Below are positions 11,215 to 27,841 of a stretch of 40,107 bases of DNA, piece by piece. Position 1 is the stretch's first letter. Every line of letters starts with the position of its first letter. The position numbers and the translations under genes are program-made. Origin of the DNA: a virus; the IMG/VR virus record IMGVR_UViG_3300045988_075043, positions 1 through 40,107 of that record; one strand, written 5' to 3'. The notes under the pieces were generated by a model. The model saw only the letters and a list, made by a program, of their open reading frames with translations. It ran no database searches and was not told the DNA's origin.

Positions 11215-11306
11215 TGGCGGAACAGGCAGGACTCGAACCTGCACACCGGAATCCATCGGTGAACGGATTAGCAATCCGCCGCAGTACCTGTTATGCTTAC
11301 TGTCCC
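11215..11306 (-). tRNA. tRNA-Ser (anticodon GCU), class II with long variable arm, CCA encoded
   Basis: Hand-folded. Acceptor GGGACAG/CTGTTCC, anticodon loop TTGCTAA, variable-arm stem CACCG/CGGTG, T-arm GCAGG-TTCGAGT-CCTGC. Confidence 0.85.
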
Positions 11307-11311
11307 GTATT

Positions 11312-11387
11312 TGGTGCTGGTGGCTGGGGTCGAACCAGCTCCCTGCGCCTTATCACGACGCCGCTCCGCCTGTTGAGCTACACCAGC
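11312..11387 (-). tRNA. tRNA-Ile (anticodon GAU), CCA encoded
   Basis: Hand-folded. Acceptor GCTGGTG/CACCAGC, D stem GCTC/GAGC, anticodon loop GTGATAA, T-arm GCTGG-TTCGACC-CCAGC. Confidence 0.85.
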
Positions 11388-14297: not shown

Positions 14298-17200
14298 TCA
14301 CACAAGTTTCCCTTTATACAGCTTGTAGAACATCTGCGCTTCCTCGCTGGAATACCCCAGCGCCACCCATGCGGCGATCATGTCCGCCTTCTTGGTGAAC
14401 TCCTGAGTGACTCCATAGGTCTGCGTAAACTGCTCCGCGGAATACCCCCTGCCCCGGAGATAGGCATACTTGAGTTCCGTCTTGTTGGGCTTCTCTGCCT
14501 CGGGGTCATAGTCCGGCATATACAGCAGCATGACCCTGTCTTTTTCCTTGTCGCTCAGGCCGTCCAGCGCCGCGATATAGCCCCATTTGTCCCGGTTGGT
14601 AACGGTGGCCTCCCCTGTGTCCTTGTCCACGCTGCCGGTGCCCTGAAGGTCAGCAAGCCCCTTAATGATCCGGTCTGCCACGTCGGAGGAAAGCCCGGAT
14701 TCCGTCATGGCGTCGAACTTCTCCGTTTCAATGGGGAATGTCTGCCGGAAAACCATCTTGTCCTTGAGGGCGTCGTGGGCGGCCTTGGTGATCTGGCCGG
14801 ATTCATAGGCATTTCCCAGTGTCCGCGCCCATTCCTGCGCCTTGTCCTTTCCGGCCATCCCGGAATTGCCGTCCAGATTCTTGTAAACCCCGTACAGGCT
14901 TGCAAACGTCTCACCGCTTACGCCGTTCTCCCTGGCGGTTATGTAGTACCCGATTCTGCCGCCGGTGCCGTTCTTAAATTCCTGCTTCTGGGCTTTCCCC
15001 AGGGATTCATAAATGCTGTAGGCCTGCCCCAGCGCCTCCGGCTCCATGGTGTCGAACGCCTTGGAAAATTCCGATCTCACCAAATCCTGCATAATGCTGT
15101 TTTCCACGGTTTTAGCGTCCTTCGGGCTGTCCGTCGTGTAATCGGAAACCGCCGCCCGGGCGTGTTCCGTGGCGTAGGTCTTCGCCCGGTTCAGGGCATT
15201 CGCTTTCTGCTCGTCCGAAAGATTCCGGAATGCTTCACTGCCCATCAGCCCGGTGTAATAGCTGCTCACCAGCTCGCCATAGGTCTTTTGGTAGGTTTCC
15301 CTTGCCTCGCCGTCCAGATTGACCGTCTCACCGTTTACATGGATAGACATGGGTGCCTGTCTGTCCGGGATAAAGCTGGTGTCACCGTCAAGGCTCCCGC
15401 TCAGTTCTTCCAGATAGTTTGTCACGTCGTTCTTGCGGTAAGTCTGGGTTTTCGTCGGGTCGACAAACGTATTGAAGAACCCGCCCCGCTCCTGCGCCTC
15501 TCCCAGTCCGCTGTATTTCTTCGGAAGGGTCTGGGACAGGAACGGAAGTCCGGCGATGATGTTGTTTATGGCATACTCCGCCGAGGTCTCCCCCCGGGTG
15601 TCCCTGTAGTATCCGTCGGTAAGCTGTGCCGTCTGCCTGACAAACTGCGGAATAAAGCTGCCGGCGGTATCTCCGGCATACCCGGCCAGTTCGTCCATTA
15701 TGCCGGAAGCATCGTCCGCTTCAACAACACCGCTTATTAAATCAACCCCACCGGACAAGCCGGTCATCATGGGGCTGTCCATCAGAGAATTGAACACAGA
15801 TTTCACGGTTGCAAACGGATACGCTTTCAGCATGTCGGCAACGCTGTCCTCTTTGGAAAGCTCATACCCGAGATATAGCTGGGTATTGAACGGCTCCAGG
15901 AAGTCCAGGCTTGTGATAATGTCCCCGTCCTGCCATTCCGAACTCCCGCCGTCCAGTCCTCTTTTGAGGGCGCTCCAATTGATTTGTGCGCCGCTTCTCC
16001 CTTCGGCCTGTAAAAGTGCCTTTTCGTCCTTGTCCTTCGGCTCATTGACCTTTACAACGCCGGTTGCAGCCGCCGCTGTAAACATGGCAATCATTCCGAC
16101 GCCGCTTAAGCCCCGGCCAAAGTCGGAAGCTACCTGCCTCTGCCGGGCAACGTCGATTTCCTTTCCGGCTTTCGCATCCTTTATGAGGGAAATAGCTTCC
16201 CCGACGCTCTTAACAACGCCCGCCGAATAGTCAATGCCCGTCTGGGTCACGTTCATAGGCACCGACGCGAACGGAATCACGGCATCTACTGCGGCTTCTC
16301 CCGGTTTCCCGAAAATATCCCCTGCGCCTCTTTTGAACCCCGCCGCCGCTCTGGAAAGATCAGAGCCACGAGTTTTGCCGTCGCTGTCTTTCCATGTTGC
16401 ATCCTTGAATGTCCGCCGGTTCGCGGTGAATTCGCTCAGCTGCGCGATCTGTTCCTCTGTAAGGTTCGCATTTTTCAGGTTGTTCAGGCTTTCGGAAATC
16501 GCCGCATTCGTTCCGCCCTCAAAGATTTTGTCCGTTACCTCAAGGTTGTAGCTCATATACTTCTGGAATGCGTACATGGCGCGCATAGCAACGTTGCCGG
16601 TGGAGCGGAAAGTCCTGCCCATGTATTTCCCGCTGCCGCCGTCGCCCATAGCTGTGGAAAGGGAGGCGCCCGCGCCCGTTTCAATCGGGATGTTCAGCTC
16701 CACACACAGCGACGCGAAGCTTGCCGCGTCCGCTGCGCCTTTTGCATAGGCCTTCACATTCTTGAAGTCGTTTCCCACAGTCTTCCGGCCTGTGAACTTA
16801 GACAGAACCGCATCCATCATCCTTCCGCCGGTGCTGTCGCTTGCGGAATCCATCAGCCCACCGAAGGAGTTGCCCGTGATATTTCTTGCAAACGTTTTAA
16901 GGCTTGCAAGCATATTCTGTTTCCGGATTCCCATGGCAATTTCCGTCTTCGTCCGCGCCCGGAAATCATCCGACATTGCCGCGATCTGGGCGTTTGCAAC
17001 CGTCTTAAGGTCGTCAAAATCCATTTTCCCAAGAATCCGTTCTGCTGTTCCTGTCAGATTCTGAGATGTGCCGAACCACGCCGTTGTATTCCTTTCCCTG
17101 GCGATCTGGCGGATAATGTCCCGCATTCCTGCGCTGTCTCCGTCATCCACCAATTCAACCGCAATTGCAATCCGGTCAATATTTTTTGCTATGTCCTTCT

Positions 17201-20200
17201 GCCACTGCTTGTAGGTTTCTCCGCCTTCCTTCTGCCGGAATGTGGAATCCTCCCGCTTCATGTCAAGAATGGCGTTCCGTGCCCGTTGCGCGGCGGTCAT
17301 TGAATCCTGCAAATCTGCCATTGTCCCGGAAATGGCGAATGCCTGCGTGACCTGTCCGGCGTTCGTCCCGATTTCCCGGATTTTCATATTCATTTCCGTG
17401 ATCTGGTTCTGTGCGCCGTCAATTTCAGAGTGTACCAGATTCTTGGTCACATATTTGGCGGTCAAAAGGTCTTCCGCCGTCCATGCGTCCTTACCCATAA
17501 GGTAGTCATATTCCGCCTGAACCTTTTCCGGGGTACTGGTTCTTTCCTTTGCCGTGGCCGTGGTGTCCGCGTTGTGCTTGACGTCGTAAATTCCGGCATC
17601 CGGGTTTCCCTTGACCATCTGCTTATAGCCCTGCCGGATGTCCGCGTCCTTGCTGTGAAGTCCGGTGTTGCTTACCGTCCGCGATACTTCCAAATCCCCG
17701 GACGGCTCATTCTGCATTCCCACCGTGTCCACAGACTGTCCGCCCCCCGTGGACTTCCCGGAACTGTCCTCCACCTGTGGACTGCTCTTTCCCATCAGGG
17801 AATCCCGGTAGGCCAAGGCGGCGTCATAGTCGTTCTTGCCGTAGGTGGGCAGTGCCGCCAGCTGGTCATCCGTGATCTTCGGGTAAGTACCCATCTTTTG
17901 GGCGACGGTGTCCGCGCTGTCCCCGTTGTGCTTCATCACGTAGATGTACGGCTCGCCCTTGTCCGGCGTCCACCCCTCGTTGGCGTAGGTCTTGTTGAAC
18001 TCCACCCTTGCCACCGGTTCAAAGCCATATTTGGCGTAGAGTTTCGCAAGCCCTTCCCCGTAGCAGTCCAGCCGGTCGCCGCCCTGCTCAATGGCAATGG
18101 GCATCATGGTGTCAAGGGCTTTCGGGGGCCCTCCGTTCTTGTTCTTGAAAACCGCCACAATGTCCCCGTCCGGAGCAATACCCACGCCCACCGTTCCGTT
18201 GTCGTTCATGAAGGTTCGGACGTTGCCGTCTTTCAGCTGCTGGGCGGATTTCGGCGTAACGCACCAGCCGTTTGCCGGGTCGGAGTTTCGCCCTGCGGTC
18301 AACGCCTGCTCATAGCTTACCGGGTCGGCGGTGGTGTCCCTTACGGCATAAGTCGGTGTTCCCCGCTGCCTCTGGGCTTCCTGTAATTTGTCGCTTACGC
18401 GAAGCTCTCCAGAAACTCGTAGGTCATTTTGAGAAGCGCCGCCTCCGGATTCTCCTTGTACGCCTCCCGGAACCACTTGGGTTCCCGCTTCCATTCCTCC
18501 GGGTGCTTGTCCAGATACTGGCAATGCTCCCGTGTCTGCTCCAGAAACCCGTTCGGTTCCAGTTCCTCCGGGTAGTCCCGTTCCATCAGTGCCTTGTAAT
18601 CCCGTTCCATTTTCCGTACCTCCCTGTATCGGATTCCCGTTAATAGCATTATAATTCCCGTCAGTGCCGGTGTCAACGCCCAGAACCCGGTCAAAGGCAT
18701 TTTGCACCGCCTGCCGTTCCGGCGTGACCTCCGGCGTTTCCTGCCTTGCAGGCGCTCTTTCCGCCAGCTCCTGCCCCATGTCCTCGATCAGGCTCTGCGC
18801 CCCCTCCCGGTTCAGGGTTGTGGTGGCGGTGTCCCCGGCCAGCTGCCGGACGGCTGCCTTTACCGCGTTCCGCTTCTCCGACGCCGTGGCCATTTGGGAC
18901 AGGTCAAGCCCCGTCTGCCGGGAAAGCTGCTCCATGGCTGCCGGGTCTGAAAGAATCTTCTCCACGGTCTTGTTGCTCACGTTCCCCGTTTCCGCCAGCT
19001 TGTCCAGTGCGTTTGTGAGCGCATTCCCCACCTGTGGTGTCCCTGCCGCCTCCGCATCAGGGCTTTGTGCTTTCGTGGTGTCAGTGGACGTTTCCGGTGA
19101 AATCCCCGCCTGTGGGTTCCCTGCGGTCTCCTGCGCGTTCTGAGAGGCATTCGTCTTTGCCTCTGCCCTTGCAACGGCATTGCTGTACACGATAGCAGTA
19201 AGGCCGGACAGACCGCCGGACAGACCGGAGACAAAGGCGGTTTCCTTTGCCTCGTCCACGATGGCCTTGGCCGCCGCCGCTTTCGCATCGGCGTAGGAAT
19301 AGCCGTCAACCACAAGCTGCTGAATGGCCCGGTTGTACTCGCTCTTTTCCTGTAGAATGGCCGCTTCGGCAAGGGTGCTGCCAACCAGGCTCGCTTCTTC
19401 CTCGCTGATCTCCACACCGGCCTGACCGATGGTGTTCAGCAGGAACTTGGTCAAATCCTTGGTAGCCCCCGCCTTGGCCTTGTCCAGCAGCTTGTCCATG
19501 GATACCTTTTCCGTCAGGACTTCCAGTATGGCGTTGACCGTGCCCATGCCGTAGGCCTGGGCAGGGGTAGCGCCCTTCTGGGTGGCTTCCCGGACACCGG
19601 ACGCAAAGGAATCCATAGCAACCGCGCCAAGGGAGGCGGTGGGACCCAGGACAGCCAGCCGGGTCAGGGAATCCGCCGTGGACATAGCCGCCTGATAGCC
19701 GTAGCCCAAAGCGTTTCTTACGACGTTGTCCCCTTCGCCCACGATATTCTTTCCGGTTTCCTCCCGGACTGCGTCGTAGTAGATGGAAGCAAGGTCATTC
19801 GACCGCACCGGTTCAAGCGTGGGATACCGCTTGGGACTAATGAGTTCGCCCACTCTGCCCATGAATGCGTTCGGCGTATTCAACAGCTTGCCGCCAACGG
19901 ATTCTATGCTCTTTCCAATGGCTCCGGGTACGGTAGACACATCCTCGGCGGCTTTCGCCATTTTCTCCTCCGCCTGCCGCTCATGAAGATCCCATGAGTA
20001 GGCGGCAACCATGGCGTCGAAGGCATCCCTGCCGTACTTGTCCACCAGAGGTTGACTCGCCTTGTCCATTCGGGTTGCCGCAAGTAAGGAAGAACCGCCG
20101 CTTCCGAAATGTGCCCAGAAATTTTCGGATATATCTTTGTTCTCGACATAATCCGCCAGCAATTTCCGGTCTTCCTCCGGGAGAGCGTTCACCTTCGCCA

Positions 20201-20624
20201 TATCCTGCTGGCGCATACGGGCGGTAATGGCTTTTTCCTGTTCGTTTTTCCAATAATCCGCCTTAGCTTTCAGCCCCTTGGATGTTTCGTCCTCGAATAC
20301 CTCCGTCATCTGCGGCGCATTCCGGGGAACCTCCGACATGGGAGTATTCCGCGTCAGCTTTGTCGCCGCCTCCTGCTTGCGCTGCTGGAACTCCTGAGAA
20401 TTCACATAGTCGTCATACTCTTTCTGGGCAAGAGCCGCGTTTTTCCTGTAACCTATGGCCTCATTGTCAAGCGCGACCAGAGCGTCCCGGTATTCCCGCT
20501 GCGATTTCTCCCTCTCCACCGGATTGTATGTGCCGCTGAGCTTTTTCACGGACTGCACCCGTTGATATTCCCTATTCGCTTTCTCCCTGATCTTCCCCCA
20601 TGATTCGTCCTTCGTAACCGCCAT
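14298..20624 (-). CDS. Giant virion/ejection (polyvalent-type) protein, 2108 aa, with a GNAT-fold-like segment
   Basis: SD AGGAGG plus ATG at 20624. Uninterrupted ORF. Residues of about 785-900 (nt about 17925-18270) read ...DRLDCYGEGLAKLYAKYGFEPVARVEFNKTYANEGW. One TM-like stretch, GVGMIAMFTAAAATGVV. Confidence 0.75.
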   Translation of the reverse strand: MAVTKDESWGKIREKANREYQRVQSVKKLSGTYNPVEREKSQREYRDALVALDNEAIGYRKNAALAQKEYDDYVNSQEFQQRKQEAATKLTRNTPMSEVPRNAPQMTEVFEDETSKGLKAKADYWKNEQEKAITARMRQQDMAKVNALPEEDRKLLADYVENKDISENFWAHFGSGGSSLLAATRMDKASQPLVDKYGRDAFDAMVAAYSWDLHERQAEEKMAKAAEDVSTVPGAIGKSIESVGGKLLNTPNAFMGRVGELISPKRYPTLEPVRSNDLASIYYDAVREETGKNIVGEGDNVVRNALGYGYQAAMSTADSLTRLAVLGPTASLGAVAMDSFASGVREATQKGATPAQAYGMGTVNAILEVLTEKVSMDKLLDKAKAGATKDLTKFLLNTIGQAGVEISEEEASLVGSTLAEAAILQEKSEYNRAIQQLVVDGYSYADAKAAAAKAIVDEAKETAFVSGLSGGLSGLTAIVYSNAVARAEAKTNASQNAQETAGNPQAGISPETSTDTTKAQSPDAEAAGTPQVGNALTNALDKLAETGNVSNKTVEKILSDPAAMEQLSRQTGLDLSQMATASEKRNAVKAAVRQLAGDTATTTLNREGAQSLIEDMGQELAERAPARQETPEVTPERQAVQNAFDRVLGVDTGTDGNYNAINGNPIQGGTENGTGLQGTDGTGLPGGTGTERVSGADTGALPVSGQAPGGMEAGTQVVPGGVQGESGGGASQNDLRVSGELRVSDKLQEAQRQRGTPTYAVRDTTADPVSYEQALTAGRNSDPANGWCVTPKSAQQLKDGNVRTFMNDNGTVGVGIAPDGDIVAVFKNKNGGPPKALDTMMPIAIEQGGDRLDCYGEGLAKLYAKYGFEPVARVEFNKTYANEGWTPDKGEPYIYVMKHNGDSADTVAQKMGTYPKITDDQLAALPTYGKNDYDAALAYRDSLMGKSSPQVEDSSGKSTGGGQSVDTVGMQNEPSGDLEVSRTVSNTGLHSKDADIRQGYKQMVKGNPDAGIYDVKHNADTTATAKERTSTPEKVQAEYDYLMGKDAWTAEDLLTAKYVTKNLVHSEIDGAQNQITEMNMKIREIGTNAGQVTQAFAISGTMADLQDSMTAAQRARNAILDMKREDSTFRQKEGGETYKQWQKDIAKNIDRIAIAVELVDDGDSAGMRDIIRQIARERNTTAWFGTSQNLTGTAERILGKMDFDDLKTVANAQIAAMSDDFRARTKTEIAMGIRKQNMLASLKTFARNITGNSFGGLMDSASDSTGGRMMDAVLSKFTGRKTVGNDFKNVKAYAKGAADAASFASLCVELNIPIETGAGASLSTAMGDGGSGKYMGRTFRSTGNVAMRAMYAFQKYMSYNLEVTDKIFEGGTNAAISESLNNLKNANLTEEQIAQLSEFTANRRTFKDATWKDSDGKTRGSDLSRAAAGFKRGAGDIFGKPGEAAVDAVIPFASVPMNVTQTGIDYSAGVVKSVGEAISLIKDAKAGKEIDVARQRQVASDFGRGLSGVGMIAMFTAAAATGVVKVNEPKDKDEKALLQAEGRSGAQINWSALKRGLDGGSSEWQDGDIITSLDFLEPFNTQLYLGYELSKEDSVADMLKAYPFATVKSVFNSLMDSPMMTGLSGGVDLISGVVEADDASGIMDELAGYAGDTAGSFIPQFVRQTAQLTDGYYRDTRGETSAEYAINNIIAGLPFLSQTLPKKYSGLGEAQERGGFFNTFVDPTKTQTYRKNDVTNYLEELSGSLDGDTSFIPDRQAPMSIHVNGETVNLDGEARETYQKTYGELVSSYYTGLMGSEAFRNLSDEQKANALNRAKTYATEHARAAVSDYTTDSPKDAKTVENSIMQDLVRSEFSKAFDTMEPEALGQAYSIYESLGKAQKQEFKNGTGGRIGYYITARENGVSGETFASLYGVYKNLDGNSGMAGKDKAQEWARTLGNAYESGQITKAAHDALKDKMVFRQTFPIETEKFDAMTESGLSSDVADRIIKGLADLQGTGSVDKDTGEATVTNRDKWGYIAALDGLSDKEKDRVMLLYMPDYDPEAEKPNKTELKYAYLRGRGYSAEQFTQTYGVTQEFTKKADMIAAWVALGYSSEEAQMFYKLYKGKLV
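18395..18610 (-). CDS. Nested +1-frame gene inside the giant ORF (71 aa, acidic/aromatic helical)
   Basis: GGAGG (18619-18623), 8 nt, then ATG at 18610; TAA at 18395-18397. Hand-counted GC3 is about 77% in this frame against about 31% in the overlapping long-ORF frame. Confidence 0.6.
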   Translation of the reverse strand: MERDYKALMERDYPEELEPNGFLEQTREHCQYLDKHPEEWKREPKWFREAYKENPEAALLKMTYEFLESFA

Positions 20625-24351: not shown

Positions 24352-24528
24352 CTAGCACCATTTCCGGGTTTTTCTCCGTTCCTTCTTCTTTACGGTGCAA
24401 TCCTTCCCAGGCGGGCAAGGCCGCTTTTCCCCGCGGACGAATATGTAATTGCAACACCGGCTGCCTTCGTAGTATCCGAAGAAATACCAGCACCCGACGC
24501 AATACTTCCTGTCGTCCCTGTATTCCAC
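24352..24528 (-). CDS. Possible small Cys-rich protein (58 aa, GTG start)
   Basis: VEYRDDRKYCVGCWYFFGYYEGSRCCNYIFVRGEKRPCPPGKDCTVKKKERRKTRKWC. The SD is weak. Confidence 0.35.
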   Translation of the reverse strand: MEYRDDRKYCVGCWYFFGYYEGSRCCNYIFVRGEKRPCPPGKDCTVKKKERRKTRKWC

Positions 24529-24546
24529 ATTACCATCCCATTTCCG

Positions 24547-25211
24547 TCACAGGGTAATCCGCTGCTGTGCTGTATATTCTGTCCACGCGGCTTCCTGCTT
24601 CTCAAAATATTCCTTGTCAATTTCCGTTCCAACAAAATCCAGATCGAAATCATACGCCGCCCGCCGGGAGCTACCGCTGCCAAGGTGAGTATCCAGAATC
24701 TTGAACCCCGGCTTCGTGTAGTGGGCGTATATCCATCGGTATAATTCTTCCGGCTTTTGAGTTGGGTGGAATCTGCCCGCTATACCCGCAGATGACATTT
24801 TGATAACTTTTGCGTTATCGTTGAAACTGCACCAGGCATATTCCGCCATTGCCATAGAAAAGTTTTCCGGGATATTTGTTTTCAGCCAGACCAAAAAGCA
24901 TCTGTTCGGTGGGAGCTGGAAATAGTTCCCACCCCATATGATTTGCTCCTTGCTCACCCGGAAAAGCTCATTGAAATAGTCCTCGCCGGGGGCATAGTCC
25001 CAGCTCGTGATTTTTTTCCGAACTTTGCCGCCCACTTTCCTCCCGTCCGGGCAATCTTGCAGGTACCTGTCAAAGCGTCCACCGAAGCGGGTGCCGCTGA
25101 CGAACTCCCCCCCCCGCTTCCATACGGCGGATCGACTACAGCCAAGTCGAAATATTTATCCGGATGCTCCCGCATGATTTCCATGCAATCAGCGTTAAGC
25201 GCAATGTTCAC
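24547..25211 (-). pseudogene. N4/N6 DNA methyltransferase (PF01555-like) split by a frameshift at a homopolymer
   Basis: N-part MNIALNADCMEIMREHPDKYFDLAVVDPPYGSGG. The C-part, in another frame, is EFVSGTRFGGRFD...IIWGGNYF...HPTQKPEELYRWIY...LDTHLGSGSS. The frames meet at the G9 run. Confidence 0.8.
25107..25115. repeat. Homopolymer C9 (G9 on the coding strand) at the methyltransferase frameshift point
   Basis: Counted directly. A run of 10 or 7 G would restore a single ORF. Confidence 0.9.
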
Positions 25212-25506
25212 ATCGTGCCACCTCTTTCCGCTTTCCTGTCACGGTATCTCCTTTGAGCTGCTCTCTGAGCGTGGGCTTTCTGGCATTCCCAGCTGCAATA
25301 GATTTTCTGCCTGATCTTGCCCTGCGTGAATTTCTTCCCGCACTGTGGGCAGATTTTAGAAATGCCCTGTGGGGCTTCCACGTCCTCCACATCGGCCTGA
25401 ATTGGCGGGTGGTATCCGTGCACATTACCATGTACTTCCCGTAGCTCGTCCCGGCCTTCTGGGCGGCTATGGAGCACAGGGTGAGATAGTCCGGTTTCTT
25501 GCTCAT
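25208..25506 (-). pseudogene. Zn-ribbon protein gene with apparent frameshift near 25415-25430
   Basis: The N-part MSKKPDYLTLCSIAAQKAGTSYGKYMVM (frame of ATG 25506) and the C-part HGYHPPIQADVEDVEAPQGISKICPQCGKKFTQGKIRQKIYCSWECQKAHAQR... (frame ending at 25208) both look coding. The alternative continuations are Arg-rich junk. Confidence 0.5.
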
Positions 25507-25655
25507 GATTTCCTCCGATCTGCAATCCGCTTTTTCTCCGCTTCCTTCAGAGCACCGAACGCCATGACGTAGATGCCCATGGTGTAGTCGGTGTTCACCG
25601 GAATCAGCGGGGCGATAAAGTGCCAGCAGTCCATGTAGGTGAGTTCATTCCTCAT
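25503..25655 (-). CDS. Small hypothetical protein (50 aa)
   Basis: MRNELTYMDCWHFIAPLIPVNTDYTMGIYVMAFGALKEAEKKRIADRRKS. ATGA coupling to the next gene. Confidence 0.45.
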   Translation of the reverse strand: MRNELTYMDCWHFIAPLIPVNTDYTMGIYVMAFGALKEAEKKRIADRRKS

Positions 25656-25670
25656 TCCAATTTACCCCCT

Positions 25671-25871
25671 TTAGCCCCGCTGATAGGCTATAATGCGTTT
25701 GATCTTGTCGTAGCTTTCATCTATTGTTATAAAATCCTGTGATACAGCATCAGGGCTGGTAAACGCAAAATAAATCTCCGTTCCGTTCTCCGTTGGCCAT
25801 ATATCCTCCACCCAGTCCAGATTAACCAGCCGGGGCTTGCCCTGCAGATGCACCTCGATAAAATCAGCCAT
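25671..25871 (-). CDS. Hypothetical protein (66 aa)
   Basis: SD AAGGAGG plus ATG. Clean composition. Confidence 0.6.
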   Translation of the reverse strand: MADFIEVHLQGKPRLVNLDWVEDIWPTENGTEIYFAFTSPDAVSQDFITIDESYDKIKRIIAYQRG

Positions 25872-26208
25872 TCTCTTCGCCTCCTTCCTTCGGCGGTTCA
25901 GGAAGCGGCATCCAAGCCAAAACCTTCGCTTTCTGTCCCTGCGCTACCTCGCCGCCCCATCTACCGTTACAGTAATAGCCGATACCGCAAGTTTGGTACA
26001 TCGCATTGTAGGAGCCATAACGGAAGTATTCGTACCAGCACAGATAACTCCTAATTTTGTCCTCCGGCAGTCTCTCGCTGACCGGAATCCACCTTGTCCG
26101 CTTCAACGCCTCCATGCCCATTCGGCAGGCTTCGTTCACCTCGTCCATGCCGTCATAATGCTCCCGGTGTTCCGGGTCAAGGATTTCAATTGCTCGTTCG
26201 ATTTTCAA
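25864..26208 (-). CDS. DUF551-like protein (114 aa)
   Basis: TTG start with SD AGGAGG. WIPVSERLPE...VLAWMPLPEPP is the DUF551 signature. Confidence 0.6.
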   Translation of the reverse strand: MKIERAIEILDPEHREHYDGMDEVNEACRMGMEALKRTRWIPVSERLPEDKIRSYLCWYEYFRYGSYNAMYQTCGIGYYCNGRWGGEVAQGQKAKVLAWMPLPEPPKEGGEENG

Positions 26209-26307
26209 AATCCGTACCTCCTACATGCATCTTTCCATAGTTCATCAAACCCGCATTTGCTGCCATTTACCGTGTAGATAAAATAACAGATGATTTTAAG
26301 TTGCCGT

Positions 26308-26619
26308 TCAGTCATCGGTTCCATCCTCCAAACACATTTTTGCACCGCAATGGCAATACGGGTATCTCCGGCAAGCCTCGCCGTATTCTCCGGCTTCCAG
26401 CAGGTGGTGCAAGTCGATATTGTCTACCTTGCGCCCGCAGATGGAGCATTCCAGGCAGAGGGTCATTTCATCTGCAAGCCGGATATTCCAGTTCCCATGC
26501 CGCACCGGCTCCGCATCGGCGGCAGGAAGTTTGCGTATCTCGGAAAAAGCCGCCGCATAATCGCCACTTGTGCGCTTTACGATTTCCATGGCCGCCTCCC
26601 GTCTGATGTAATCACTCAT
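26308..26619 (-). CDS. Hypothetical Cys-containing protein (103 aa)
   Basis: ATGA coupling to the ASCH gene. CLECSICG...CHCG zinc-ribbon-like pairs. Confidence 0.55.
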   Translation of the reverse strand: MSDYIRREAAMEIVKRTSGDYAAAFSEIRKLPAADAEPVRHGNWNIRLADEMTLCLECSICGRKVDNIDLHHLLEAGEYGEACRRYPYCHCGAKMCLEDGTDD

Positions 26620-27122
26620 TTCAATTCCTCCACGTAGCACCAACTCTGGGGTGGTTTTTCTACCGTGCAATCATGGCACGTCCCGCACTTTGGAATGGCG
26701 ATACCCAGGTCGTTATATTTACATTCACGGTTCCATGGTTTGAAACGATAGAGTGGCTTCGGCATATCGTAGATTTTTAGGTTGGAAATGTGCCAGCCGT
26801 ACAATGTTGCACCTTTTCCGTAGTCCCACAAAGCACCGTCCACAAGCCTAGTCTGCGCCACAAAGTAATCATCAACATCGTAGATTCCATACGGTTCTGT
26901 TGCCGCCTTGATGGTTTCAACCCGGTCGCAAATAAACTCCCCAATGACCTTGCCCCATGAGCCGCGCAGTCTGCGTGCGTCGTTGCCTTGCGTGCAGTAG
27001 ATGTAGCATTTGAACGGCGTGTCCAGCTTTGGCCTGGTTTTTCGCACCTCAACGGTCTTTTCACCTCTGGCAATCTTCTCCACCCACTCCGGGCGGATGC
27101 TGATAAGTACCGCCTTACTCAT
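26616..27122 (-). CDS. ASCH-domain protein (168 aa)
   Basis: SD GGAGGG plus ATG at 27122. AVLISIRPEWVEKIARGEKTVEVRKTRP is a typical ASCH N-terminus. Confidence 0.65.
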   Translation of the reverse strand: MSKAVLISIRPEWVEKIARGEKTVEVRKTRPKLDTPFKCYIYCTQGNDARRLRGSWGKVIGEFICDRVETIKAATEPYGIYDVDDYFVAQTRLVDGALWDYGKGATLYGWHISNLKIYDMPKPLYRFKPWNRECKYNDLGIAIPKCGTCHDCTVEKPPQSWCYVEELK

Positions 27123-27366
27123 GCTCAGCCCTCCGGTTCCACATATCGGCGGCCTTTTTACGATCGTCTTTGGCAAACGTAATTTCCCCATCCGATTCCA
27201 AGTCCACCGTTACAATGAAATCTCTCATAGGCAGTTCAATCATGCAGTTAGTACACTTGATGCCAAATTGCCATTCATGCGCTGTGCAACGTATGTAGTT
27301 TTTGTCGATGATATACACTGCCTCCCCCCCGCAAAACGGGCAGGGCTTCAATTTGATTTCGTCCAT
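27115..27366 (-). CDS. Lar-family restriction-alleviation-like protein (83 aa)
   Basis: LKPCPFCGGEA...C..C...WNRR pattern. Confidence 0.55.
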   Translation of the reverse strand: MDEIKLKPCPFCGGEAVYIIDKNYIRCTAHEWQFGIKCTNCMIELPMRDFIVTVDLESDGEITFAKDDRKKAADMWNRRAEHE

Positions 27367-27406
27367 TGTTATCTCCTTCCCGCCCGGGTTGCCCCGGGCT
27401 TATCTG

Positions 27407-27841
27407 CTATCTAAAAATCACTACCATAGACGGAAACGGTGCTGGGTTCATTGCTGCCCCGTTTTCATCTTCAAATTTTAACCGTCCACGCAGAAACCGA
27501 ATTTCAGCTTTTCCGTATATGTAATCGTGGAAAAAGCTTGTGTCCGTCCGTGCCGGAATCAGCATGACGATTGTAACCCCCCAACGAACATGTTCAGAAT
27601 ATGCCTTTTGAACCCATTTCCCGATCTCCCTGCCATAGGGTGGGTTGCAAAACACAGCCCCATACCCGCTCCACGAACAGGATAACCCATCCACTTCTGG
27701 CGTAAAATATCGTTCACACTTGGCGTTTTCAGGGGAAGCGGCGGCATCTAAGCCAAAATGGAATTCCTGATCCAGTTCCTGAAAAAAGTCTTTTGGCGTT
27801 CGCCAGTCCATTTTTACGCTGGAAAATAACGCTTTGTTCAT
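27407..27841 (-). CDS. Phage N6-adenine DNA methyltransferase (Dam, PF05869-like; 144 aa)
   Basis: DWRTPKDFFQELDQEFHFGLDAAAS...NAK...VFCNPPYGREIGKWVQKA...LIPARTDTSFF. Confidence 0.8.
   Translation of the reverse strand: MNKALFSSVKMDWRTPKDFFQELDQEFHFGLDAAASPENAKCERYFTPEVDGLSCSWSGYGAVFCNPPYGREIGKWVQKAYSEHVRWGVTIVMLIPARTDTSFFHDYIYGKAEIRFLRGRLKFEDENGAAMNPAPFPSMVVIFR

Follow-up and report, generated by a model that had tools for sequence, protein, structure and literature searches.

The switching of DNA methyltransferases between ON and OFF states by unstable repeats is established for Type III mod genes, for some Type I systems and for the cj0031 gene of Campylobacter jejuni. In the phasevarions (modA, modH, modM and modS of Type III; hsdM/hsdS of Type I), slippage of a repeat within the open reading frame (ORF) shifts the frame and toggles methylation, and the Type IIG gene cj0031 is likewise turned ON or OFF by the length of a polyG run in an ORF that contains the methyltransferase (PMC4889913). 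Among phages, hypermutable homopolymers are established for the receptor-binding proteins of Campylobacter Fletchervirus. A preprint on the contingency loci of T2 and T4 extends homopolymer switching in phages and mentions an unstudied polyG tract in a methylase gene of Bordetella phage BPP-1, the one earlier, anecdotal case in a phage methylase. Here we describe a methyltransferase gene interrupted at a homopolymer in IMG/VR virus record IMGVR_UViG_3300045988_075043, positions 1 to 40,107; we call this whole stretch of 40,107 nucleotides the window. We consider the gene to be probably a contingency locus, switched by slipped-strand changes at two homopolymer tracts.

The locus departs from the described systems in several respects. 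Compared with the phasevarions, it is a small stand-alone phage methylase, Type II-like and lacking a res or hsd partner; its repeat lies in the loop beside the catalytic DPPY motif and not towards the 5' end; and its two tracts flank a segment that is open in two frames, making two full-length proteins possible. By comparison, cj0031 encodes a chromosomal fused restriction-modification enzyme with a simple ON/OFF switch, for which no alternative-frame isoform is known (PMC4889913). The Fletchervirus and T2/T4 studies describe the same use of hypermutable homopolymers for bet-hedging, but in receptor-binding and other genes and in cultured phages. C-terminal switching in Helicobacter canadensis (PMC2823697) is similar in that a change of homopolymer length leads into an alternative open frame and not to plain truncation, whereas here an internal loop is replaced and the original frame is regained at the second tract. 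In our literature search, which covered mostly open-access text and is weak evidence for that reason, we met neither a conserved hot spot of repeats in a phage family of stand-alone beta-class methylases nor the use of two tracts to exchange an internal loop between two frames.

The interruption is a run of nine C residues on the strand as given (CCCCCCCCC), that is, of nine G residues (G9) on the coding strand, where GAT CCG CCG TAT GGA AGC (DPPYGS) is followed directly by the run and then by AGT TCG. An earlier note on this DNA had placed the meeting point of two methyltransferase halves, lying in different frames, precisely at this run, and had claimed that a run of G10 or G7 would give one intact ORF. 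Both statements hold. Repair in silico yields a single ORF of 221 amino acids with G10 and one of 220 amino acids with G7, and none that is intact with G8 or G9; G10 and G7 are the in-frame lengths, and G8, G9 and G11 are out of frame. As assembled, the N-terminal ORF of 85 amino acids ends in the tail ...DPPYGSGGGSSSAAP...SFSG*, and the C-terminal part, in the -1 frame relative to it, continues to its end at 24547 with no additional stops or shifts.

The G10 product is 100% identical to a database protein (P0001) that has been called on several other contigs; homologues number roughly 8000. Its match to phrog_67 ('DNA methyltransferase') continues without a break across the junction (residues 5-217; expectation value, E, 1e-33), and the two halves therefore belong to a single gene. 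Against PF01555 the repaired protein reaches 46.8 bits (cut-off 26.7), and its motifs stand in the beta-class order, with the catalytic DPPY towards the N-terminus (residues 27-30), HPTQKP at residues 149-154 and LGSGSS, for S-adenosylmethionine (AdoMet), towards the C-terminus (residues 177-182). Profile, motif order and predicted fold identify the repaired product as a putative beta-class N6-adenine/N4-cytosine DNA methyltransferase.

A second homopolymer, A7, lies about 90 nucleotides (nt) downstream of the G tract, and the segment between the two is open in two frames, each of which carries one conserved R-x-G-G-x-[F/W] motif. In the C-terminal frame this is M1, followed by LQDCPDGRKVGGKVRKK; in the frame that the N-terminus has at G9 it is M2, embedded in ...CKIA-RTGGKWAAKF-GKK. 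The combination G10/A7 gives a full-length protein with M1 (isoform A, which is P0001), and G9/A8 gives a full-length protein with M2 in its place (isoform B). With the A7 tract and the two-frame segment included, the switch has three states or more: isoform A, isoform B and off. The earlier note was right about the G tract as the element that sets the frame; the simple ON/OFF switch that it proposed overlooked the A7 tract and the two-frame segment and has to be widened.

Close relatives were fetched blind to the state of the tract, through a protein-pattern scan of IMG/VR and through a DNA pattern, ending before the G run, applied to metagenome contigs. The 21 loci in this set comprise 11 that encode isoform A, two that encode isoform B and eight that are out of frame. 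Isoform A is reached by G10/A7 in nine loci (L002-L007, L023, L035 and L105), by the interrupted tract GGGTGGGGG in one (L001) and by G9 followed by AAG in one (L008). Both isoform B loci (L013 and L102) have G9/A8 and are in frame by way of the other frame, a -1 change at the G tract being offset by +1 at the A tract. The out-of-frame loci have G9 (L010, L011, L104 and L106), G8 (L012 and L103), G11 (L009) or G13 (L036). Among these, L103 also carries GGG-A7, which gives the isoform B junction, but its G8 turns the gene off. The comparison with related genomes that the earlier note had proposed thus finds a tract that is not fixed in frame, with G8, G9, G10, G11, G13, an interrupted run and G9+A among close relatives.

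Tract length also varies between genes that are otherwise identical. When haplotypes were compared after masking of indel columns, three single-nucleotide polymorphism (SNP) haplotypes, each identical across 608 gene columns, were each found to hold several tract lengths (G9/G10/G11; G9A/G8A; G10/G9); lengths of G8, G9, G10 and G11 all occur on identical SNP haplotypes. Together with the eight of 21 relatives that are out of frame, this result supports the phase-variable reading put forward earlier. The G9/A7 state is present in at least 11 independent contigs on at least three backgrounds. The exact G9-OFF peptide of the window is encoded on seven contigs from seven samples, and the contig of one G9 locus (L104) has a coverage of 26x. 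Additional G8 and G11 alleles were recovered via truncated gene calls starting MEAGGEF... or MEAGGGEF.... Variation of this kind is the pattern that would be expected of a hypermutable tract. A distant blastn search of the locus against GenBank phages found no close relative, only matches of 70-78% over short stretches, and annotated phage records gave nothing; the closest genome matches are contigs of uncultured Oscillospiraceae metagenome-assembled genomes (MAGs), and an Oscillospiraceae host is probable. Separately, L133 (G11/A7) and L102 (G9/A8) lie on similar SNP backgrounds (AACAGC, GATTCGG, GTTTGG, ATCGTG), and therefore both tracts differ between near relatives.

The repeat is a property of the methylase family and not a peculiarity of the phage in the window. 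From viral contigs and from bacterial genomes and MAGs we gathered 91 loci and reduced them to 70 non-redundant lineages, with protein identity down to ~45%. Runs of G or C of at least 8 number 28 within the 150 nt after DPPY (10.5 kb in total) and 13 in the other 411 kb, an 84-fold difference (Poisson 1e-43). Within these 150 nt a run of at least 8 is found in 24 of the 70 lineages and a run of at least 7 in 37. Four of the 13 'outside' runs actually lie within methylase genes of the family, one of them still in the loop and three at IIWGGNYF, and of the latter one belongs to a second methylase copy of the same locus. These extra G8 runs (TGG GGG GGG AAC) stand 205 nt (L048) and 306 nt (L077) after DPPY and, in the second copy of L092, 1031 nt before DPPY; the conserved IIWGGNYF motif is a second possible slippage site, in the enzyme core.

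Dinucleotide repeats occur at the same place. In seven lineages the loop after DPPY holds (AG)n or (AC)n of 8-16 units: AG repeats, read in frame as RERERE..., in L027, L043, L054, L059, L085 and L094, and an AC repeat in L086. As assembled, four of these (L059, L085, L086 and L094) are not in frame. The earlier note had named relatives without any homopolymer at this position as evidence that would tell against switching; what we find is that homologues down to the lowest identity sampled carry a homopolymer or a dinucleotide repeat there. Changes of frame have a similar distribution, with 20 of the 70 lineages changing frame in the 11,978 nt from DPPY to the conserved anchor that follows and none in the internal control, the stretches between later anchors of the same genes (19,113 nt; p 5e-9). 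GGG accounts for 25% of Gly codons in the rest of the family genes, yet the G tracts are kept; three successive GGG codons are therefore not an effect of codon usage. Further G/C runs of 8-11 flank the methylase, at positions relative to DPPY of +2285 in L050, -170 in L054, -668 and -562 in L064, and +971 and +1187 in L079. These runs, in genes or spacers, may be other contingency loci.

Because regular-expression motif searches favour conserved copies, selection on the two frames was assessed with a test anchored at the KK-I..WD.AP junction, in which the entropy of each codon position was taken over the ten codons upstream and M2 was not required. In the 14 sequences whose C-terminal frame reads M2, the entropies of positions 1/2/3 are 0.39/0.65/1.29, the normal pattern. 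In the 21 sequences whose C-terminal frame reads the shifted version (DGRKVGGKVRKK type), they are 1.34/0.86/0.77, and the most variable position, the first, corresponds to the wobble position in the frame of M2. M2 has therefore been under selection even where the assembled ORF skips it, a pattern that would require M2 to have been translated for a substantial part of the history of those lineages. M1 is conserved in the family both in and out of the frame of the assembled ORF, and its out-of-frame copies lean the same way, in a test biased by the motif search. At the A tract, 34 of 36 distinct sequences spell the KK pair as AAAAAA, although AAA makes up 44% of Lys codons elsewhere in the genes (p 2e-22), and the run is A7 in 29 and A8 in five.

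Both motifs recur well beyond the close relatives. Many distant relatives have the sequence RTGG(T/K)W..KY.KK in frame, and protein clusters with M2 only are large (P0133 with 300 members, P0157 with 110 and P0064 with 79). M1 and M2 share one frame in about 12 lineages, which is probably the ancestral arrangement, and in about 23 lineages both are intact in different frames. A sister lineage is represented in the protein database by three intact forms, with M1 only (P0010), with M2 only (P0037) and with M1 and M2 together (P0021). In the species of the window, isoform B is documented by loci L013, L102 and L103, and no isoform B version of the window protein above 88% identity is present among the protein-database matches listed; sister-lineage examples are P0037, P0064, P0133 and P0157. 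The configuration of the window itself, with the N-terminus in the M2 frame and the C-terminus in the M1 frame, is found in seven diverged lineages (the window, L014, L016, L020, L059, L088 and L090), which include Muribaculaceae and Duncaniella MAGs. The full-length ORF of L030, L040 and L058 follows a third frame and reads neither M1 nor M2, both of which are preserved intact in the two remaining frames; that third frame encodes, in L030 and L040, a recurrent sequence, HY(T/S)FG(L/G)RKK(D/E)K.Y, which is also found in L048, L066 and L077.

Isoform A (P0001) and isoform B (P0037) were both modelled with AlphaFold, and each model contains a confident beta-class methyltransferase core (predicted template modelling score, pTM, 0.74 for the repaired protein). 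The switch segment is modelled as a loop with a predicted local distance difference test (pLDDT) value below 50, at residues 30-72 in isoform A and 38-80 in isoform B. Beta-class DNA methyltransferases make up all of the 38 highest-ranking Foldseek matches, the best being CcrM (6pbd, E 3e-11), and CcrM is the best match by sequence as well as by fold. Fold and motif order (DPPY first, AdoMet-binding motif last) are shared with CcrM, M.BceJIV, M.RsrI, M.MboIIA and M1.HpyAVI. Loop-2B of CcrM starts with DPPY, inserts between the DNA strands, which are separated, contacts the target strand, makes base-specific contacts and is required for catalysis; its residue L42 is packed on F125, and its residue R44, which reads the first GANTC base, is likewise required (PMC13092597). 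M1 (F-G-G-R-F-D-R) resembles the L-G-G-D-L-L-R of CcrM. We infer that the switch segment is the counterpart of loop-2B, and the same holds for any effect that its exchange may have on specificity. Unlike CcrM, the window enzyme has no 83-residue C-terminal domain (the protein ends 13 residues past the last methyltransferase helix, with no extra domain), and its loop is about twice as long and bears the M1/M2 motifs. Orthology with CcrM as a GANTC methylase was rejected on the score against NF050803 (45.6 bits, cut-off 830).

One further suggestion can be offered only tentatively. The two tracts may form a frame-toggle cassette that, besides OFF, swaps a DNA-contacting loop (M1 for M2), so that a lineage might cycle between two activities or specificities and none. 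Such a cassette, built on polyG, polyA and (AG)n/(AC)n repeats, might be conserved in a large family of methylases from gut phages infecting Clostridia and Bacteroidales.

On the contingency-locus reading, slipped-strand mispairing, mostly at the G tract and more rarely at the A tract, would move the gene between isoform A, isoform B and broken states. The tracts would thereby set both the expression and the loop sequence of a phage-borne, stand-alone, CcrM-like DNA adenine methyltransferase. The G9/A7 of the window would represent a broken intermediate from which one slip at either tract restores a full-length protein; G8 and G11 would be broken likewise. Within a population of phages or lysogens, tract changes would be frequent and reversible, and both isoforms would be active. 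The benefit would lie in bet-hedging: in the ON state the enzyme would shield phage or prophage DNA against restriction enzymes and might also change the host methylome, and an OFF phage or prophage would evade restriction that depends on methylation and be spared the cost of methylating. The sequences themselves show the anatomy of the gene, the polymorphism on identical backgrounds, the repeat hot spot of the family, frame changes limited to the loop and selection on two frames. Of the features looked for in a contingency locus, the gene displays a frame-setting repeat within the ORF, length polymorphism between otherwise identical sequences and a repeat kept in place, against codon usage, in diverged relatives.

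Several considerations weigh against this reading or narrow it. Isoform A is without M2, which is near-universal in the family, and one of the two 'ON' forms may thus be inactive. All of the relatives are metagenome assemblies, some at 3-8x coverage, and part of the spread in tract length could therefore be consensus error; such error could add to the spread in low-coverage assemblies, but it could not explain all of it. The counts for the first haplotype are biased by the fetching route, its loci having been found by the OFF peptide or by the ON protein. No within-sample pair of tract lengths was obtained, the ON- and OFF-allele contigs retrieved stemming from different runs, and we infer length heterogeneity within populations, and its reversibility, from assemblies compared between samples only. 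Finally, a single 9-run per 40 kb is not improbable from composition alone. The G9 is the sole homopolymer of at least 8 in the window, and dinucleotide shuffles of the window contain on average 1.58 9-runs, with at least one in 68 of 100 shuffles; the window is poor in G/C runs of at least 7 (four overlapping matches, 16.7 expected). The improbability of the run was accordingly dropped as an argument. Since composition permits one such run, the case rests on the relatives and on the position of the tract, which falls precisely where the two frames meet, a site at which relatives have repeats too, and not on rarity.

Rather than a switch in the DNA, or beside it, programmed recoding might make isoform A and/or B from G9/A7, by a -1 ribosomal frameshift or by slippage of RNA polymerase, and G9/A7 would then be a functional low-expression configuration and not OFF. 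Several observations favour this explanation. In the N-terminal frame both tracts of G9/A7 are perfect -1 slippery heptamers (G_GGG_GGG leading to EFVSG..., and A_AAA_AAA leading to ITSWDY...), the same configuration recurs in the seven diverged lineages, M2 is selected where the C-terminus is reachable only by a -1 shift at A7, and the A tract is kept against codon usage. We nevertheless regard it as unlikely. Tracts of A7 and G9 are short for efficient transcriptional slippage, downstream RNA structure is not unusual beyond shuffled controls (fold z -0.33 after A7 and +1.12 after G9), and a programmed site would be expected at a fixed length. Furthermore, the in-frame alleles G10/A7 and G9/A8 are common on the same haplotypes, and recoding is therefore not required.

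It may also be that the phage of this sample has an intact G10 gene, from which the consensus lost one G; homopolymers of 9-10 are the most error-prone of contexts, and G10 is common on the very same haplotype. The number of independent contigs and backgrounds with G9/A7, one of them at 26x, and the existence of compensated G9/A8 alleles make an error of assembly or sequencing improbable; it would also leave unexplained the family-wide repeat enrichment, the dinucleotide repeats and the preservation of two frames. An error in the window contig would not, in any case, change the conclusion on the locus. There is, lastly, little to recommend the view that the gene is an ordinary pseudogene, made redundant by a Dam-type enzyme and decaying, in which the tract was the chance site of the first inactivating mutation. 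A second methylase is indeed present and 30-40% of relatives are out of frame; however, outside the tract the gene does not differ from intact alleles (0 differences in 608 columns) and contains no additional stops or shifts, all frame changes in the 70 lineages fall within the repeat-bearing loop and none in the core, both frames are under purifying selection, and the tracts are maintained against codon usage. Simple decay is thus very hard to credit.

The surroundings of the gene are in keeping with a role in defence against restriction (Table 1). A second, intact Dam-type methylase had been reported in the earlier note, correctly, and its presence together with a Lar-like gene near the interrupted methylase (module 25864-27841) suggests a candidate anti-restriction module; the neighbours fit one that is early. 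The sole other G/C run of at least 7 in the window, a G7 at 27324-27330 on the minus strand, lies inside the Lar-like ORF and is read there as codons C-G-G-E. The methylase and its short flanks make up a cassette of ~1.1 kb (24372-25516) that is 95-100% identical in phages with differing neighbours, as in mosaic exchange, and the out-of-frame state therefore occurs in several genomic backgrounds. In relatives the cassette lies a few small genes upstream of the terminase and portal genes; in the window the downstream genes are different. Elsewhere in the window, tRNA-Ser(GCT) adjoins tRNA-Ile(GAT) at 11215-11387 on the minus strand, and an ORF of 2108 amino acids (14298-20624, minus strand) presumably encodes a structural or tail protein.

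Table 1. Coordinates of the interrupted methyltransferase gene, its parts and its neighbours in the window.
Feature	Position	Strand	Basis or remark
Whole methyltransferase gene, beta-class N6-adenine-type, PF01555, CcrM-like fold, interrupted (G9/A7)	24547..25211	-	Repaired ORF and profiles
Truncated 85-amino-acid ORF of the G9/A7 state: N-terminus, DPPY, frameshifted M1 region, M2, stop	24954..25211	-	
Catalytic motif IV, DPPY	25122..25133	-	Aligns to CcrM D31-Y34
G9 homopolymer, primary slippage tract	25107..25115	-	Sequence and length variation in relatives; G10/G7 joins N-terminal to C-terminal frame
C-terminal frame: EFVSGTRFGG...IIWGGNYF...HPTQKP (24751-24768)...motif I DTHLGSGSS (24667-24693)...stop	24547..25107	-	
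M1, RFGGRFDRY, C-terminal frame	25063..25089	-	Translated only in G10/G7 phase
M2, RTGGKWAAKF, in frame of N-terminus at G9	25020..25049	-	Linked to C-terminus only through A8 or by -1 slippage at A7
A7 homopolymer (T7 on + strand), second tract, Lys-Lys-Ile junction before SWDYAP	25011..25017	-	A8 or GGG-A7 joins M2 frame to C-terminal frame
DUF551 protein	25864..26208	-	
ASCH-domain protein	26616..27191	-	
Lar-like restriction-alleviation protein	27115..27366	-	
Dam-type phage N6-adenine methylase, intact	27407..27841	-	PF05869 E 1e-32; TIGR01712 95.8 bits, just below 97.05 cut-off

Phase-variable methyltransferases are known mainly from the chromosomal Type I/III systems of pathogens, and contingency loci in phages have been recognised only recently. 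Our findings suggest that a widespread gut-phage family of stand-alone methylases carries a selected repeat hot spot in the loop that reads the DNA. If this is true, pipelines that discard such genes as frameshifted pseudogenes would miss functional genes, and the two-frame segment would offer a compact natural case of an internal protein loop swapped by means of two slippage sites. Phage populations and their lysogens would, moreover, be epigenetically mixed by design, which would bear on how phages evade restriction-modification and methylation-dependent defence, and on the variation of gut methylomes at the level of strains.

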